A stretch of DNA of 64,000 bases from the NCBI GenBank assembly GCA_002269645.1, contig NIVC01002369.1, positions 1 to 64,000 on the forward strand, read 5' to 3'. Numbering within the stretch: position 1 is the stretch's first letter; every line of letters starts with the position of its first letter. Source of the DNA: Macrostomum lignano (taxonomy: Eukaryota). The notes beneath the pieces were generated by a model, which saw only the letters and a program-made list of their open reading frames with translations, was not told the origin of the DNA and searched no databases. Shown here in pieces: positions 6,101 through 64,000 of the stretch. A program made the translations under genes and the position numbers.

Positions 6101-9100
6101 GCGGCTGCCTTCGCCGACGTGTACTCCAGTCGACGCGATGAGCTGGACCTCCGGGCTTCTCGGATGGACACTGGCCTACGCAAGCTGCTGGATGCCGCCG
6201 GCTCAGTCGGCGGTCTGGCGCGTGACCTGTCAGCTAAGGAGGCCGCTCTGGTCGACATCAGCCGAGTGGCTGACGAAGCACTCAAGGAGCTCACTGAGAC
6301 GGCTTCAACTATGCAGGAAATCCGTGAGCAGGTGGATGTGGTCCGCGAGCGAGCCCAATCTCTGGTCGAGGCTATGGACGTGGATCGGGAGATAGCGGAG
6401 GAGAAGCTGGAGGCGGCCAAGCCGGCGCTCGAAGAGGCGGAGACGGCGCTGCAGACGCTGAAGCCGGCCGACATCTCGACAGTGAAGAAGCTGGCAAAAC
6501 CGCCGCATCTCATCATGCGCATCATGGACTGCGTGCTGCTGCTATTCCGACGGCACATCGACCCGGTGACAATGGACCCGGAGAAGAACTGCATCAAGCC
6601 GTCCTGGAGTGAGGCGTTGAAATTGCTCAGCGGAGATTTTCTAGGGGCGCTGCTTAACTTTCCGAAGGTCTGAAGTGTATAAAGCACATTTTCTTAATTA
6701 CAATTTTTGTGTTCTTAATGAGGTGGTGCCTTATTGACCTCAAGAGGGTGTAGCTAATTATAGATTGGTGTTAATTAGGTTCTTTATTGATACACCCCAC
6801 CTGTAACGAGTGGAACCCGGAGATTCGGGTTGGGAAGTTAAGTGACCCTGTCAGGTGTACGAGCTACTTAGTGGAAGTTTTAAATTGTGGCTTGTAGGTT
6901 TGAGTAGCCCCTACCAGGGGTAAACGCATTAGTAGTAGTAGTGGCATATGAGCCGGAGGACTCCAAGAGTACGAGTATCTAGCTGTACAGTGCTCACAAA
7001 AACAATCCTAGGACACAATCAACGGTGAAACTGCCGAGCTGCTGCAGCCCTACTTCGAGATGGAGGACTACACCATGGAGACGGCTCGGAAAGTGAGCGG
7101 CAACGTAGCCGGACTGTGCGCCTGGACCCAGGCCATGGCCACGTTCTACAGCATCAACAAGGATGTCATGCCGTTGAAGGTTGGTGGGACTTTTACCCGT
7201 GTATATAAGATTTTTACTTGCACTTTTAGAAGGTGAGCCAGCCAAACACAAACGGAATCTACGCATATTCTTTTGGTTATTAATAATTAAGATGCCTTGG
7301 ATGTCCGTCGCTTTGTATGAGAATACACACAGATACTATAATTAATAGACTAGATGGACTACTTAGCATATCTACGTGTAAGCTAATTTCGGTTTAGTAC
7401 TCGTAGAAAGTCAAATATCGGATATGTCTGGGGACCGGGAAGGCCAGCGCAGAGTGCGCAGTTGTAGCTGTTCTTTCAGTTGACTAACAGCATCGGCTCG
7501 GTGTGGCGGCGCGTTGTTATCCTGGACAACCCCCAAGTAGCAATGAGCTTCGCGCGTGCCGTAAGTTGCGTCACTCGCAAAGTGAGAAAAATTCATCTCG
7601 ATTGGAGGGTGGAACTTTTGACTGTTGCTGAGTATATATGTATTTAGGAGACTCGTTTATTGACCCTTTTAAGGCTCATTCACACCTACCAAATGAGCCA
7701 AAATCACACGACCAATGTACAAAGGAATCAAATTTGATCTACAAGTTGTGTTTATCACTCGAAATCTGGCCTTATTTGATGGCGGTGCTTAGCAGAACCC
7801 TTCCGGCTTAGTCTTGCTCTTGCCTGAGCAACCGCCCCGCCTCCCAATTTTTATTGCCTTTCTCGGTGCTTCCTGCCTAAGACTGCCTGCCATGTACATT
7901 ATACAGGCTCGTTTATTGACCCTCCTCACCCCCAGCAGAACCTCTTCCGACCCGTACAAAATCTCTACCCCCAACCTGCCGTCCAATTTACAGTGCCTTC
8001 CAAGCCTAAAACTGCCAGCCATGTACATTTCCAGTGGCGCTGGCTAATGTACATTATGACTGCACCAATAGCGCGAGTTGTTTACGTGTCTGCAAGTCAC
8101 GCTTGCTGCCTTTCTTTTTTCATAAAATAGCTTACACATTCCCTCCTTGCTACTAAACTGAAACTATAGAGTAGCAGAGAGTTTTAACAAGCAAACATGC
8201 CTAAGTGGTCTATCTAGTCCTGTGGTATCTGTGTTGAGAATCCATCAAATTGTGCTAATTCATTTATTAATAAATCATAACACAGGACGGCAGCAGGAGG
8301 ATTATGAGCGCCAGCGATCTTAAAGTTCGATATGAAAATTTTCTATTCTATACTTTTACTTTGTTATTCAGTAGTTGATTTTTTTATTGAATCTTATAGT
8401 CAGCTAGAAAACGGCCAAATTCTTCACATACGCTGTGAGTAGCAAGTATCACAAACTAGCTTTTATCATGTAGAGGACAAAAGACGTATTCAATTTCGAA
8501 TAAAATACGATTTTCAACAAGCAACTCTTTGCTCCCCCACGTAGGAGGAAGTGGACGACGAAGAGGAGGCTCAAAAGAGTCTGAGGGTAACATCAGCTTT
8601 CATTTTTTCTAAGCTTAACTGAGGTACTTGAAGACTGCATGCGAGGCGCCAACTTGTTAATCTAAGATGGCTTTCTAGGCTATCGTAGTTTTCCATATTT
8701 CAAAGAGCATGCAAATATTCGGTTCTAAGCATGCGCATGAGCAGTTAAAACCAATGATATCTTACTGACGATATGTATAGAAAATAACTTAATAAAGGTA
8801 AAATTTTGCATGATAAAACTCAATGAATAGCAATAGAAAATTAAAAAAAATTATTTCACTGCAACACCGGAATACGAGATGGCATGCAACTAAAAGAAGT
8901 GAATTTAAAAAATATTGATCTCTATTCAATCAATATATCAAATTTTCCTCTCTGCTACTTGTTACGGTACTCCGCCAACTCCTTGGTACGATGCGTCATA
9001 AAAATGCAACCCAAATAAAATTTCTTTGACCAGGCCAATCTGGCCATTCAGGAGGGCCGCCTCAGCCGCACCCGTCGAGAGCTGCGGCACGCCCAGCTGA

Positions 9101-23744: not shown

Positions 23745-26545
23745 TGTCATGTCAAAAATTAAAGAGCCACCATGTCGAACATAAAAGAGCCACCATGTCA
23801 AACATTAAAGAGCCACCATGTCAGACATTAAAGAGCCACTATGTCAAACATAAAATAGCCACTATGTCAAACATTAAACAGCCACCATATCGAACACTAA
23901 AGAGCCACCATGTCAAACATATATGTGACTCCATGTCAAATATATACGTGACTCCATGTCACACATAAAAGAGCCACCATGTAAAACATATACACATGAC
24001 TACATAACAAACATTAAACAGCCATCATGTCGAACATTAAAGAGCCATCATGTCAAAAATTAAAGAGCCACCATGTCAAACATTAAAGACCCACCATGTC
24101 AAACATAAAAGAGCCACCATGAAAAGCATATACGTGACTCCATGCCAAATATATACGTGACTCCATGTCAAACACAGACGTGACTCCATGTGAAACACTA
24201 GAGAGCCACCATGTCAAACATTAAAGAGCCACGATGTCAAACATTTAAGAGCACCATGTTAAACATAAAGGAGCCACCATGTCGAACATTAAAGAGCCAC
24301 CATTTCAAACATTAAAGAGCCATCATTACATTAAGGTGCCACCAGGTCAAACATTAAAGAGCCACCATGTCAAACATTAAAGAGCCACCATGTCGAACAT
24401 TAAAGAGCCATCATGTCAAACATAAAAGAGCCACTATGTCAAACAATAAAGGGACACCATGTCAGACATTAAAAAAAACCCGAATCAAACATAAGAGAGC
24501 CACCATGTAGAACATTAAGGAGCCACCATGTCAAACATAGAAGAGCCACCATGTCAAACATAAAACAGCCACCATGTCAAACATAAAAGAGCCACCATGT
24601 CAAACATAAAAGAGCCATCATGTCAAACATATATGTGACTCCATGTCAAATATATACGTGACTCCATGTCACACATAAAAGAGCCACCATGTAAAACATA
24701 TACACATGACTACATAACAAACATTAAACAGCCATCATGTCGAACATTAAAGAGCCATCATGTCAAAAATTAAAGAGCCACCATGTCAAACATTAAAGAC
24801 CCACCATGTCAAACATAAAAGAGCCACCATGAAAAGCATATACGTGACTCCATGCCAAATATATACGTGACTCCATGTCAAACACAGACGTGACTCCATG
24901 TGAAACACTAGAGAGCCACCATGTCAAACATTAAAGAGCCACGATGTCAAACATTTAAGAGCACCATGTTAAACATAAAGGAGCCACCATGTCGAACATT
25001 AAAGAGCCACCATTTCAAACATTAAAGAGCCATCATTACATTAAGGTGCCACCAGGTCAAACATTAAAGAGCCACCATGTCAAACATTAAAGAGCCACCA
25101 TGTCGAACATTAAAGAGCCATCATGTCAAACATAAAAGAGCCACTATGTCAAACAATAAAGGGACACCATGTCAGACATTAAAAAAAACCCGAATCAAAC
25201 ATAAGAGAGCCACCATGTAGAACATTAAAGAGCCACCATGTCAAACATAGAAGAGCCACCATGTCAAACATAAAACAGCCACCATGTCAAACATAAAAGA
25301 GCCACCATGTCAAATATAAAAGAGCCATCATGTCAAACATAAAGGAGCCACCATGTCAATCAAAAAAGAGCCACCATGTCAAACTTAAAACAGCCACCAT
25401 GTCAAACATAAAGGAGCCACCATGTCAAACATTAAAGAGCCGCAATGTCAAACATTGAAGAGCCATCATGTCAAACATTGAAGAGCCACCATGTCAAACA
25501 TTAAAGAGCCACCATGTCGAACATTAAAGAGCCACCATGTCCAACATATATGTGACTCCATGTCAAACATTATAGAGCCAGCATGTCAAACATTAAAGTG
25601 CTACCATGTCAAACATAGAAGAGCCACCATGTCGAACAATAACGAGTCACCATGTCAAGTATATTCGTGACTCCATGTCAAACATAAAAGAGCTACCATG
25701 AAGAACATTAAAGAGCCACCACGTAAAACATTAAAGAGCCACCATGTCAAACATAAAAGAGCCATCATGTCAAACATAAAGGAGCCACCATGTCAATCAA
25801 AAAAGAGCCACCATGTCAAACATAAAGGAGCCACCATGTCAAACATTAAAGAGCCGCAATGTCAAACATTAAAGAGCCATCATGTCGAACAATAAAGAGC
25901 CACCATGTCTAACATTAAAGAGCCACCATGTCGAACATTAAAGAGCCACCATGTCTAACATTAAAAAGCCACCTTTTTGAACATAAAAGAGCAACCAATG
26001 TCGAACATTAAAGAACCACTATGTCCAACATAAAAGAGCCACCATGTCAAACATAAAAGAGCCATCATGTCAAACATTAAAGAGCCACCATTTCGAACAT
26101 TAAAGAGCCACCATGTCAAACAGTAAAGAGCCACCATGTCAAGCAAAAAAGAGCCACCATGTCCAACATAAAAGAGCCACCATGTCAAACATTAAAAGAG
26201 CCGCAATGTCAAACATTAAAGAGCCATCATGTCTAACATTAAAGAGCCACCATGTCGAACATTAAAGAGCCACCATGTCTAACATAAAGAGCCACCATTT
26301 CAAACATAAAAGAGCCACCATGTCAAAAATTAAAGAGCCATAATGTCAAACAGTAAAACGCCACCATGTCAAACAATAAAGAGACACCATGTCAGACATT
26401 AAAAAAACCCTGAATCAAACATAAGAGAGCCACCATGTAGAACATAAAAGAGCCACCATGTCAAACATTAAAGAGCCACCATGTCAAACATTAAAAAGCC
26501 ACCATGTCAAACATTAAAGAGCCACCATGTCAAACATAAAATTTA
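23745..26545. repeat. 23-bp satellite (AAAGAGCCACCATGTCAAACATT)n, ~2.8 kb, with a 710-bp higher-order duplication
   Basis: Tandem units throughout; the block starting at 23911 is repeated starting at 24621. Confidence 0.96.
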
Positions 26546-59400: not shown

Positions 59401-61802
59401 TAGGAACCACAACACTAGAAATTCTTGTATCTACAGATATGGGGAAGCAAAAAGGTAGGGATATTTTCAGCATCTGCATGAATTTTAAAATAAACTTAAC
59501 AAAGTCAAGTTTTCCCATTTTGTACTTTGTAATTATATAATTGAACTTTAATTATAGATGATTTGTCTAACATAATTTGGAAGTTCAAATTGAACTAAAG
59601 AAATAATTGTTTTCATTTTTATAACATTATATGTTTCAATTTTTTGACTATTTGCTGATTTAAGACATATTAGTTTTGCTTCTAGTTTTCTAATATTTCC
59701 AATATTTAAGCATGCAACAATAGTATTAGTAAGATACTATAGTGGTTGTTTATCTAAGACACTTGAATTGTATCTAAGATAGTTAGAATTAGAATTCATT
59801 AAAAACTTCAATAGTTTTATTTAGTTTCATTTAGACTCATTGGAATATTCTCCAATTCTATTGTTCCAGAAACCATGAAGTTTTCTCCCAAAAAATCAGT
59901 GTTCCCACTTAGCAACCTTTATTTTTTGAGCCAAGCCATTCATTTTTGCACCATAGATATTTTTGTGCCATTATCACTCTACCTCTAAGGCTCTAATGCA
60001 GTGTGATATCCTTTGAGATATTTAAAAACTCATACCTAACATCCAGGGACCTAGATCATAAATCATCTAATTTTGGACAAGATAAGACACTACAACTTGG
60101 CAAAAAATAGCAACAACAGCATGAGTATCAGACTATTAATTTCTCTAAATCAATATTGCAATTAAAACATAAAAGTTCTATCCAACACCATCAAGGTTGG
60201 CTTTGTTATTCTATTGGTATATAAAAAGTATGCTTGTTCCTCATATTAGCAAAAAGGATGTTAAGAGAATTTTTAATTAGCACTAATAATATCATGCAAT
60301 ACCCATAGCTATAGATTATACTTAGTCCCTTGGAAAAGATAACCAGCACTATAGCAAAATAAATGTAATAACAATAGAGTATAATTTGTATAATAAAACA
60401 TATAGAAAATGGAAAAAATAGGTAAGAAGCCAAAAAGGCAACATAAAAGGCACTGTTTAATTCCTACAATCTCAACAGATAGCTATTACGGTAGATCAAG
60501 AAAAAAAGGTGCAAATATGCAATGCATGTCTCACTTTTGATAGAATTTGGAATATCATGTATGCAAACATATTCAATCATAGATTCCAAATGGGGACACC
60601 TCAATATCTAAACTTTAAAATACCTAACAGGCTCTTACAATTATATCTAGCCTTGTATCTATCCTTAATACCAAAAATGGTATCAAGATAAGGTTAGGTT
60701 CAGGGTTAGTATTGCATGTCAATCTAGATTGCAGTGTGGATTTTTTAAATTATGCTCATGGTCATGGCACATAATGTTACAATATAATTATTTATATTAT
60801 GCTCCCAACCTTATAAATATCTAATAATTATTACTACATGCTGATAGGCAATTTATGATTGAGGATATGAAAGTTTAATGTAATTTGGAAAATGACAAAA
60901 ATAAAAAGAATAAATCTTGTATTGCTGTCTCTACTGCAGATGAAACTTCTTACTCTATATGCTTTTAAGCAACCTTTTGCCTGTCAAAGAAGACAACAGA
61001 ATGTTGCTAGCAACACACTTAAGTATAGACTTAATTATACAAAGATTTTCTTTTTCTTTCTTCTTTAGAAGCTTCGCTTGCTCACATCATAAATCTTCCT
61101 ACTCCTTGTCCATTGACTACATATTTTTCTGTGCTGTCTCCTTTTCTCTTTTTTGGCAATCTTGTGCTCTATTTCACTAGCCTTTATCTATAGCGCTAGT
61201 GCCTCTTTAGCATTGCAGAATGTCTTGCTGGTCCTCTTCTCAGATTCAACCTTCAGAATTAAAGCTTCTTCCAGTTGCTTTTAGTGGGCCTCTTCAGCTT
61301 CCTTTTTCTTATCTTTCATGTGTTGGTTATACGCAGCTCTGGCAAAAGAGCAAAAATTTATCAGCTTTGCTGTTACTCAAAGCAAGGCTGCAATCTAGTT
61401 CTTGACATTCAAGCATTATTGTGTTACTATCAAAGCCTAAGTAATGTTAGGCGTAAGTAGTGAACACTTCTTGGTGATGATTATGTTGGTGTAGGACCAA
61501 GACAAGAAGATTCGCCAGGGGTTAGTAAAATGGGTGGCAATGCTTTCTCGCTGTTTCTAGACACACAGAGCCCCCTGCAGTAAGTCAAGTAGGACCAAGA
61601 CCGCCACATACAAAGACCACTACACTTAGGAGCTAGGAGAGGAATTTGGCTCAATGTGTTATTAAATGGTGCTAGAAAGAAGATGAGTCAGTAGGAAAGC
61701 CAATAGGACAAGCCTGCAAGAGAGGAACCTATGACTAGGCCTATAAGAGGAGGAATAGCAATGATTAAAGATTGGTAGGCTCCTTGATACCAATAGCCAA
61801 TA

Positions 61803-62585
61803 GTGCCAACCAAGCCCTGTAAGCCTGGAGGCAAAACCAAGAGATCACCCCCGGCTACTACAAATGAAGAACCGAGACTCAAGTGGGCTGCTTTGTTAGC
61901 TTCTCAAGCCACGGCACCAGTACAATCGATGGTAGTGAGGGCTACCCCGCCAAGCAGCAGCCGTACAATCCAAATTGAAGCACCGGCCAAAGCACCGACA
62001 GCTCGAGGTTCAAAGATGCCGCATCAAAGCACGCCTGCGTCTGCAGCCACCGCAGCACCGATATTGTCACGGCTGGGACCAAGAACATCGCCTTGGCGAA
62101 GCCCAAGACGATCATCACCATGGAGCCAGGGAGCTTTGCTGCCGAGCCCAAGAGTGTCACCATGGAAGAGCCTGTCGCCAAGACAGCAGAGACGATCGCC
62201 GCCAAGGGAGGCAGCCGACTTTCGTAGAATAGTACGCAGATTGATCGAAACCCACGGCGCCGACATCGAGAGGCTGCACTATAATTTTTGGCAGTACATG
62301 CTTTACCAAAGCTTACCACTAGCACTAGCTTACCTTCATCTGGACATACGCCAGCGACTGCCGCAAGCCTCCAAGGTCTGGCCAAGTGTCAAAATTCTGC
62401 GGGAACAGTACTCCCATCAGGAAGCAGTCGCCGTCCTCCAGGATGTGGCTGACCAGTTGCACCAGAACTTCCGCAGTGACCGTCGACCACCCAACCACCA
62501 GCTGATCAACGCCGAGATCGATTGGCTTTTCGGCCAAATCAAGTGGCCGTACTACCGTGACCTACCGCATCCCTGCCAGTTTTAA
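61803..62585 (+). CDS. Orphan ORF (260 aa): Ser/Pro/Arg-rich low-complexity N-half, helical-looking C-half; function unknown
   Basis: GC- and CpG-rich island within CpG-poor DNA. The frame extends upstream to an ATG at 61761 through three stops (TAG, TGA, TAG). No family recognised. Confidence 0.45.
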   Translation: MPTKPCKPGGKTKRSPPATTNEEPRLKWAALLASQATAPVQSMVVRATPPSSSRTIQIEAPAKAPTARGSKMPHQSTPASAATAAPILSRLGPRTSPWRSPRRSSPWSQGALLPSPRVSPWKSLSPRQQRRSPPREAADFRRIVRRLIETHGADIERLHYNFWQYMLYQSLPLALAYLHLDIRQRLPQASKVWPSVKILREQYSHQEAVAVLQDVADQLHQNFRSDRRPPNHQLINAEIDWLFGQIKWPYYRDLPHPCQF

Positions 62586-63365
62586 GGACTGAATGTCGAG
62601 TGATCTTAACAATTTGCACTATAAACAATTTCTTTCTTATGCTGTACTCTTTATTAATGTTGTACTTTTAATTTTAGCACTATTAGTTGAAATTTTTGCA
62701 CTTAAAATTCATAATATTACTTTTGCGTTTAAAAATTTCTTTCAGAGGAGGAAAGTTGTGCTAGTGTATGTTCCTGTTAATTACCTTTACTATTCTTTGT
62801 GCCTGATAAAATGCCTATTACAATTCATACATATAAATTAGCCGATTTATGACCATGTTAAATTCGCATGCAAACTAGAAACTAATTTTAGCATTTGTTT
62901 TATTATGCAAAATATTATCAATAAATATTTTTGTTATAATCATAGCCATCTAAAACAGTATATATAATACGAGTGATTTTGCCAAATAAAAGTAACCTTT
63001 TCTTGCTCTCGAAATATATGTGCGCTATAATATTGGTTTGTTCTATATTCTCAGATAAACCTTGAAATCTTGTTGAGTTAGTTATTTTAAGGAAAGGGGA
63101 GTGACAGTGCTCAGAAACTTACTAAGAGAAGGGATTGGGAAAATATTACAAAAGGGAAATTCAGAGAGTTGTGCTGTGACCCTCTAATCCCGGTGAACAC
63201 CCGACTAGGACAATCTAAAAAGTTCATGTACTAGTACTAGACCGCTCAGGCCATACAAAGATGCTACCAGACTAATACATAAGACACTACATCAGACTAA
63301 TACATAAAACGCTACCAGAATATTCAAATGAAATTCTAAGAAACAGGTAGAAACATTAAGGAAGA

Positions 63366-63620
63366 TTTGGTTACAGGTTATAGCAGTAGGATTTTGTATC
63401 GTACGGGAACACCCCTGCGACAACTTTGGTGTCAGCAGTAGAATTAGTGAGATAGTATTTAGAAGGAAGAATAAGCCCTGTTACAACTTTGGTGGCATAA
63501 CGGTGGAATTTTATAGAGAGCCAAAAGGCCCGTAACAACTTGGTATCAGGGGTTGTGATTAAAATTGATAAAGTAGGAGGTAAAACACCTGTTACAATAT
63601 TGTGCAGTAGTAGTAGAAGC
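63366..63620 (+). other. Tandem array of five LTR-terminus + tRNA-Leu primer-binding-site-like modules
   Basis: Anchors ending in ACA at 63375, 63422, 63485, 63537 and 63596. The three central ones are followed after 3-4 nt by TGGTGTCAGCAGTAGAATT, TGGTGGCATAACGGTGGAATT and TGGTATCAGGGGTTGTGATT; the outer two are degenerate. Confidence 0.7.
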
Positions 63621-63686
63621 AATCAACTTGGACTGTTTCTAATGCTGTTTCCAAGCTAAAAAGTCGAAAGGCGAAGAAAAAACCGA

Positions 63687-64000
63687 ATGACTAGTGGCAT
63701 GGACATGAAGCCCAAAGTAGTGTTAATTAACCCCTTTAAAAACCTTGATAAAGGTTAGAACGTTACGTCTAAGGGGCTAATATCTTTAGACCCTATGCAT
63801 GCTAAGTCAACGCTAAATGAATTTGATGGAAAAAAAACTTGGCACGAACAGCAAAAAGTAGCGAGGAACATTTCAACCGCCATCTTTGACCCAGCACGCC
63901 TTAGCGAGAGTACTGAACTGAAATCAATCGCTCTGTCAATTTCCCAGCCTTATGAGTAGGCTTGAGTAGTAATTCGTCTTATTGATAACACGATGGATAA
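63687..64000 (+). pseudogene. Start of a decayed gag-like ORF, runs off the window
   Basis: ATG at 63687: MTSGMDMKPKVVLINPFKNLDKG*NVTSKGLISLDPMHAKSTLNEFDGKKTWHEQQKVARNI...QPYE*A*VVIRLIDNTMD. Stops are TAG/TAG/TGA. Position just after the PBS array and an EFDG..W motif fit a Ty3/gypsy-type gag. Confidence 0.45.

Follow-up and report, generated by a model that had tools for sequence, protein, structure and literature searches.

A variable array of att/primer-binding-site modules in the U5 of a Ty3/Gypsy lineage of Macrostomum lignano

What is a row of LTR-end and primer-binding-site (PBS) junctions doing at one locus of the Macrostomum lignano genome, and how did it arise? The row lies near the right end of a 64,000-nucleotide stretch of contig NIVC01002369.1 (forward strand), which we call the window. 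An earlier note, made from the letters alone, described five such modules matching different tRNA-Leu isoacceptors in a leader followed by a gag-like frame. Its unit letters and spacings of 47, 63, 52 and 59 nt are correct, as is its recognition of the units as LTR-end plus PBS junctions complementary to tRNA-Leu. The position assigned to them was wrong. The array is the U5 (right) end of the 3′ LTR of a 5′-truncated Ty3/Gypsy element rather than part of a leader before gag, and in relatives it sits in U5 inside both LTRs. The features of the locus are as follows.

61797..62585, plus strand: ORF3-like frame, 262 aa from stop to stop; homology with relatives starts at about 61802
62744..62755, plus strand: polypurine tract (PPT); the same PPT precedes the 3′ LTR in C2404, L134, L137 and L155
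62757..63596, plus strand: 3′ LTR, 840 bp, TG...CA, placed from genome matches and the PPT
63253..63319, plus strand: short tandem repeats of 23-25 nt containing anti-PBS 7-mers, the complement of the first 7 PBS bases (63263-63269, 63311-63317)
63368..63422, plus strand: module 1, type G; decayed PBS (63368-63392) with a 7-nt duplication, spacer, att-like end
63427..63485, plus strand: module 2, type F; decayed PBS (63427-63444), spacer, att-like end
63490..63537, plus strand: module 3, type A; decayed PBS (63490-63509), spacer, att-like end
63541..63596, plus strand: module 4, type B; decayed PBS (63541-63559), spacer, att used for integration
63597..64000, no strand: host flank, outside the element, containing no gag; common to the homologous locus L017, which has no element

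The module plan is a PBS-like stretch of 18-25 nt, a spacer and an att-like end in ACA (ends at 63422, 63485, 63537 and 63596), and type A is the commonest module type among the arrays of relatives. Four modules are present where five had been counted. The supposed fifth PBS, from 63600 on, is host flank that is also found at the element-free locus L017, and the stretch taken for the first LTR end (63369-63375) heads a PBS-like copy that has a 7-nt imperfect duplication (compare L068 and L144). Nor does a gag-like frame follow the array; past 63600 no stop-free stretch exceeds 66 codons, and the frame opened by the ATG at 63688 ends after 23. A genome search with the array region gave 67 matches from 40 scored of 397 candidates, many of which end at the last att-like end. 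At the upstream limit, 17 of the 62 genome matches share an exact start at 62756/62757, just after the PPT, which makes the array the last 230 bp of an 840-bp LTR. Among 15 window-family LTRs examined, 5 of them without a parsed array, solo LTRs have a 4-bp target-site duplication (TSD) in 7 of 9 parsed cases, 3 of the 7 sharing one flank. Two window-family solo LTRs are interrupted by 0.6-0.85 kb of other DNA (L019:5858-6447; L041:2132-2985).

The window copy retains only the 3′ part of an element. No second LTR copy or 5′ LTR was found in the 64-kb window, and the copy's own TSD is unreadable because the 5′ part has been lost. Its own gag and pol are absent; it is tied to the gag-pol relatives L149 and L157 by its LTR (about 73%), PPT and ORF3. 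The last shares 36-43% identity with its counterpart, the third ORF, in gag-pol and in gag-only relatives. ORF3 (in L149, positions 7985-8764) is low-complexity and Ala/Ser/Pro-rich with a conserved C-terminal block, and it occurs in autonomous and non-autonomous members alike; neither ORF3 nor the short gag of relatives gave a Pfam match. Contigs from four public runs span the array, with module-skipping and go-back joints, which argues against an assembly artefact; we regard it as near certain that the array is real and that these structural facts hold. The locus has a 99% twin with the element (C420) and an 86-98% homologue without it (C3057), consistent with a redundant or polyploid assembly. 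Positions 1-57000 of the window are rich in minisatellites and microsatellites (141 TRF rows), for example a 23-bp unit repeated 122 times at 23748-26541.

Arrays of this kind are found throughout the relatives of this remnant. The intact element L066 (5.8 kb, identical 1022-bp LTRs, 4-bp TSD) carries the same six modules in both LTRs and has a working PBS after the 5′ LTR only. Its short gag, used as a query, gave 150 matches, and from these we hand-picked 65 elements across score groups, duplicated loci included, so that counts from this set are not independent. All 65 carry 1-7 internal modules. Eleven had no usable 3′ array and were left out of the two-LTR comparison; of the remaining 54, whose arrays could be read in both LTRs, 50 copies are symmetric, and a 4-bp TSD flanks 46. 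The set spans 4.6-10 kb of coding elements and comprises gag-only members and 8-9 kb members with gag, pol and ORF3. The pol order is PR-RT-RH-IN in L149 and L157, and RT is 86-95% identical to that of L149 in the 11 elements tested. Non-autonomous partners with an open gag of about 200 aa (L066:3570-4175 and relatives) and ORF3 but no pol are abundant, and they share LTRs with different autonomous lineages. Tandem whole elements sharing LTRs were also seen (L122-L123 on C1833, three copies; L149-L150 on C2404, two; L200; L218/L229; L230), and the PBS form differs by one base between the C1833 repeats.

The resemblance to tRNA-Leu that the earlier note had proposed is real but loose. Units 2-4 lie 3-5 edits from host Leu 3′ ends, compared to 6-10 from host Lys or Val, and unit 1 stands at 7-8 edits from Leu because of its 7-nt duplication. 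The PBS of module 2 is 3 edits from Leu-CAG and 4 from Leu-AAG/TAG and Leu-CAA; that of module 3 is 4 edits from Leu-AAG/TAG. At the same loose threshold, single sites number 33 on the plus strand and 37 on the minus strand of the 64-kb window, which leaves the att-anchored cluster alone as exceeding chance. The LTR holds 3 sites, compared to a mean of 0.1 (maximum 2) in 60 shuffles. The host set compared consisted of Leu-AAG/TAG (12 loci), Leu-CAG (15 of 19 loci), intron-bearing Leu-CAA, Lys-TTT and Val-CAC, and it is incomplete in that a true Leu-TAA gene was not recovered. Calls of 73-nt “Leu-TAA” genes were set aside, as they lack the long variable arm. At L078-L080, tRNA-like genes of 73-76 nt (Leu-TAA and Ile-TAT according to ARAGORN) resemble each other and are likewise without this arm; they are possibly tRNA-derived repeats or pseudogenes. 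L116 holds a tRNA with a Leu-CAG body and an AAG anticodon. A search of the window for a tRNA gene found none.

The primer in use is tRNA-Leu(AAG/TAG). Its 11-nt core survives in the working PBS of 63 of 65 elements, followed either by a lineage-specific bulge and GGAT or, in 17 of the 65, by the rest of the perfect 18-nt complement. Perfect sites are scattered over the gag groups and the gag tree (which left out one of the 65 elements), and perfect and bulged forms coexist in every lineage (L147 versus L134, L145 versus L066). In 5 of the 17 perfect sites base 19 is a genomic C where the tRNA would template T, indicating that copying stops after 18 nt. A stop at this place is expected from the known block at m1A58 (PMC12657518). 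We conclude that the flip between bulged and perfect 18-nt complements is the mark of plus-strand strong-stop DNA copying the primer; the retained GGAT would let the plus-strand 3′ end pair after transfer. The perfect form accounts for 26% of working sites (p=1.5e-4 against 0.5, with copies that are not independent). As in retroviruses (HIV, MLV, mouse ETn/MusD), copying takes in the 3′ 18 nt of the tRNA, and perfect PBSs are found alongside imperfect ones over the whole tree. Retroviruses are described as inheriting the tRNA copy of the PBS 50:50, and Ty1 and Ty3 as inheriting only the genomic PBS (PMC7472051), which makes inheritance of the tRNA copy in a Gypsy lineage retrovirus-like.

The internal sites look like decayed copies of one PBS rather than sites for several isoacceptors. 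Among 104 distinct internal strings, one keeps the AAG/TAG 11-nt core (this is the perfect 18-mer) and one the CAG core; the closest tRNA is AAG/TAG for 46, CAG for 18 and CAA for 5, with 35 ties. The changes are mostly G>A and CpG-type. Positions 1-4, 7-8, 13 and 17 are kept in 0.92-0.98 of strings, partly through detection bias. The last module is 3.7 edits away from the tRNA and the third from last 4.7, and decay increases away from the 3′ end (rho 0.34 over 149 string-rank pairs, which are not independent). It has been suggested that the modules form a multi-primer leader in which each primes from a different tRNA-Leu isoacceptor. The strings closest to Leu-CAG and Leu-CAA, including the one that matches CAG over 11 nt, could be read in this way, and L143 and L195 may represent internal priming. 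We nevertheless consider a multi-primer array extremely unlikely, given that the internal core survives in only 1 of 104 strings. In 50 of the 54 two-LTR copies priming took place at the last module, where these copies also end; neither internal nor terminal sites include a perfect CAG or CAA 18-mer; both possible cases of internal priming use the AAG/TAG sequence; and position 6 is often A (25 strings), which fits none of the three recovered Leu types.

The spacers between these sites belong to a pool common to the lineage. In the first set of arrays, 135 distinct spacers fall into 32 types. As the earlier note held, they are not a plain tandem repeat (between-type identity 0.475, compared to 0.443 ± 0.005 in shuffles, over 406 pairs), and module number and order differ among copies. 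Elements with near-identical gag carry unrelated module strings (L142, C; L143, LCI; L145, NDIBA; L144, IGAH). Both orders occur for 17 of 95 co-occurring pairs of spacer types, 12 of 24 multi-copy types are seen both terminally and internally, and one spacer can bear several PBS heads. The idea that the spacers are captured leaders found no support, as 0 of 30 types match a leader better than shuffles do (p<0.05), and spacer order shows no CRISPR-like polarity (shared prefix 74, shared suffix 87); a gradient of PBS decay is present. Exact tandem module copies also occur, with four A-type units in L069 and two in L126.

Five elements (L128, L143, L155, L195 and L048) contain perfect internal 18-mers, and their spacers have decayed heads elsewhere. 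In L128, L143, L155 and L195 the att and linker before the perfect 18-mer equal the terminal end of other copies (L131/L142; L147). Two of these are asymmetric and flanked by a TSD: L195 (4 versus 2 modules) and L143 (3 versus 2) have extra modules on the 5′ side only, from the perfect copy on. L155 and L128 have the perfect-headed modules in both LTRs. L132 (4 versus 5) is one module short on the 5′ side, and the junction there falls within att homology; L146 (3 versus 1) is uninformative because it has no TSD. As a rule it is the last att, immediately ahead of the working PBS, that serves for integration, and at most 2 of the 46 TSD-flanked copies end at an internal att.

The range of the phenomenon was examined in more distant elements. 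In a sister lineage (RT 53-60%), modules of 64-86 nt headed by a perfect or near-perfect PBS are present in 8 of 19 elements. In L216, for example, an 86-nt unit stands twice, with identical sequence, in each LTR; L228, of the same family, lacks such modules. Elements at RT 63% have one upstream PBS-core copy in 4 of 4 cases, and short-LTR elements that use the same tRNA (RT 37-39%) have a single PBS in 5 of 5, from 20 control loci of which seven were without a valid LTR pair. Within the sister lineage, L207, L219, L232, L233 and L237 have working PBSs bulged differently (1-2 nt after position 5-6) beside perfect forms. One exact pattern scan of metagenome contigs gave 0 matches, a result that says little of other animals.

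One interpretation of the array is that it is a degenerate minisatellite of about 52 nt spanning the LTR end and PBS, changed at the DNA level by tandem duplication, unequal recombination or gene conversion. The exact tandem copies in L069 and L126, the slight residual identity between spacer types and the abundance of G>A and C>T changes, some of them at the CpG of positions 10-11, would all be in keeping with such an origin. It leaves unexplained why perfect 18-nt tRNA copies replace decayed heads exactly at junctions, why LTR pairs that are 100% identical hold lineage-mixed arrays, and why asymmetries end on att with a clean TSD. The perfect-headed gains on the 5′ side and the modules of the sister lineage weaken it further, and we consider it very unlikely.

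We favor, with a probability of roughly 60%, a strand-transfer model in which reverse transcription is the step at which U5 modules, each with a spacer of about 30 nt, are gained, lost and exchanged. With the minus strand primed at the last site, the whole array would be copied into U5. Plus-strand strong-stop DNA, ending in an 18-nt tRNA copy, could anneal to any PBS-like minus-strand complement, and this tRNA-templated end may sometimes land on a PBS copy inside the array, in its own genome or in a co-packaged one. The modules that lie downstream in the donor would then be added on the 5′ side, behind a newly made perfect PBS, and the next cycle, primed at the last site, would fix them in both LTRs. 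Alternatively, the fresh internal site may itself prime, which would leave a short 3′ LTR. Slips between similar att ends or PBS copies would duplicate modules, as perhaps in L069 and L126, or delete them, as perhaps in L132. Once two sites were present the process would feed itself, and internal sites would lose the 11-nt core by mutation. In the sister lineage, internal sites are predicted to pair with an anti-PBS located in the spacer of the same module, and priming would thereby stay at the last site. Of the origins offered in the earlier note, repeated strong-stop events come closest to the evidence.

Some observations fit this model less closely. L195 and L143 fit internal priming at a refreshed site equally well as gain by transfer, and the identical gag of L155 and L195 makes it plausible that a parent already carried the extra modules. 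Spacer order shows no 5′-old/3′-new polarity. The roughly 32 spacer types match neither leaders nor, clearly, each other, and the transfer model leaves their first origin unexplained. We take the array to be mostly a self-feeding, tolerated by-product that acts as a recombination cassette. Its presence in 65 of 65 elements, the retained PBS positions and the anti-PBS motifs, however, amount to more order than a neutral by-product needs.

This order could instead reflect a selected structure, in which helices between internal PBS copies and anti-PBS motifs, or binding of tRNA or 3′-tRFs, shield or time the working PBS; modules may then arise by strand transfer and yet be kept by selection. We hold this to be possible, although rather unlikely. 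An anti-PBS 7-mer is present in 1-6 copies in 63 of 65 elements (about 0.2 expected), nearly always upstream of the array and sometimes within the first module. Folding predicts, at p>0.5, that the motif pairs with one PBS copy or another in 40 of the 45 distinct leaders (an internal copy in 32, the working PBS in 16), but complementary motifs pair in any fold by construction. Similarly, a PBS-core copy followed by a complementary CTAC(C) stretch lies upstream in 19 of 19 sister elements (RT 53-60%) and in 4 of 4 at 63%. Imperfect PBSs have been proposed to persist in mouse ERVs by evading 3′-tRFs, a trade-off set out in PMC7472051. Only 17 of 65 working PBSs are perfect here, as expected if perfect sites are silenced, but a 26% share could also be a repair bias. 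The number of anti-PBS motifs is unrelated to the number of modules (rho 0.08), which itself ranges from 1 to 7. Positions 14-16 of the PBS, the would-be miRNA-like seed of a tRF, are among the less conserved (0.67-0.71), which argues against a tRF decoy, and the lack of polarity in spacer order argues against a tuned one. The window U5 is no more stable than its shuffles (folding energy -86.8, compared to -90.4 ± 5.9), and L147 and L066 are more stable by about 2 and 3 SD, respectively. A conserved att-PBS hairpin was considered and rejected, since it could be seen by eye at some ends only and is not general.

The anti-PBS 7-mer in the short LTR tandem repeats of the window and its relatives mimics the tRNA 3′ end. 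In many lineages a 6-mer complementary to PBS positions 8-13 stands just before these repeats (63241-63246 in the window). One more speculative reading, which we consider unlikely, is of a selected U5 cassette in which disabled primer sites and tRNA-end mimics soak up tRNA-Leu 3′ fragments or gate the primer site, re-diversified every few cycles by tRNA-templated transfer between co-packaged families. If true, it would be an evolvable counter-defence array written by reverse transcriptase.

How does this lineage compare to known elements? Of the named Gypsy clades Gmr1/Osvaldo, Mag, CsRN1 and Mdg3, the first would be our guess, by elimination; a pol comparison matched an identical Macrostomum lignano sequence and returned no clade-defining names. 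With canonical Ty3/Gypsy elements (Metaviridae) it shares TG...CA LTRs, a PPT, a tRNA PBS 2-6 nt after the 5′ LTR and a 4-bp TSD. It further shares gag and PR-RT-RH-IN pol and gag-only non-autonomous partners; the comparison includes the families catalogued in this host (PMC12801592). It is unlike them in that U5 ends in 1-7 shuffled att/PBS modules rather than in one junction. The word tRNA is absent from the main text of that catalogue, and a search of its supplement 5 for a gag-start stretch gave no match (PMC12801592).

The closest parallels concern primer sites and strand transfer. Aberrant second-strand transfers are documented in HIV-1 (PMC12657518). Those of HIV lead to defective deletions, whereas here they appear to build a heritable array. 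The HIV-1 culture mutant of Li et al. 1997 reportedly maintained a dual PBS stably; that was a laboratory virus with two sites for two tRNAs, compared to a natural, lineage-wide array in both LTRs here. The second PBS of Drosophila gypsy and yeast Ty3, for which tRNA bridging has been proposed and which is dispensable for cDNA synthesis in gypsy (PMC1635307), is one site at the 3′ end of the genome, without att ends and neither arrayed nor shuffled. Helenus and Cassandra TRIMs likewise hold small-RNA-related sequence within their LTRs, but they are miniature and non-autonomous and have a tRNA- or 5S-like Pol III promoter (PMC10886601). The lineage described here has 18-nt complements of a tRNA 3′ end only, and its autonomous 8-9 kb elements also carry the array. 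Membership in Helenus/TRIMp3 was rejected, as the window has no tRNA and relatives are 4.6-10 kb and coding. In the literature searched, which did not extend to subscription journals and Repbase reports, we found no account of att/PBS arrays in U5. The lineage is not a new element class but a lineage-wide dynamic variant of Ty3/Gypsy LTR architecture.

Textbooks and LTR annotation tools treat the U5/PBS junction as a single fixed landmark. Here the junction is a variable array over dozens of young copies, and states of gain, loss and fixation are visible in one genome. The genomic evidence indicates that the tRNA copy of the PBS is passed on in a Gypsy-type element as it is in retroviruses, and that some three quarters of the copies nevertheless retain a bulged site. 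This makes the proposed trade-off between priming and tRF silencing testable in natural variants of a laboratory flatworm. Module strings could in addition mark which families share particles. If, as is likely, the modules were stacked by mis-landed strand transfers, each LTR would record past copying errors and partner swaps.
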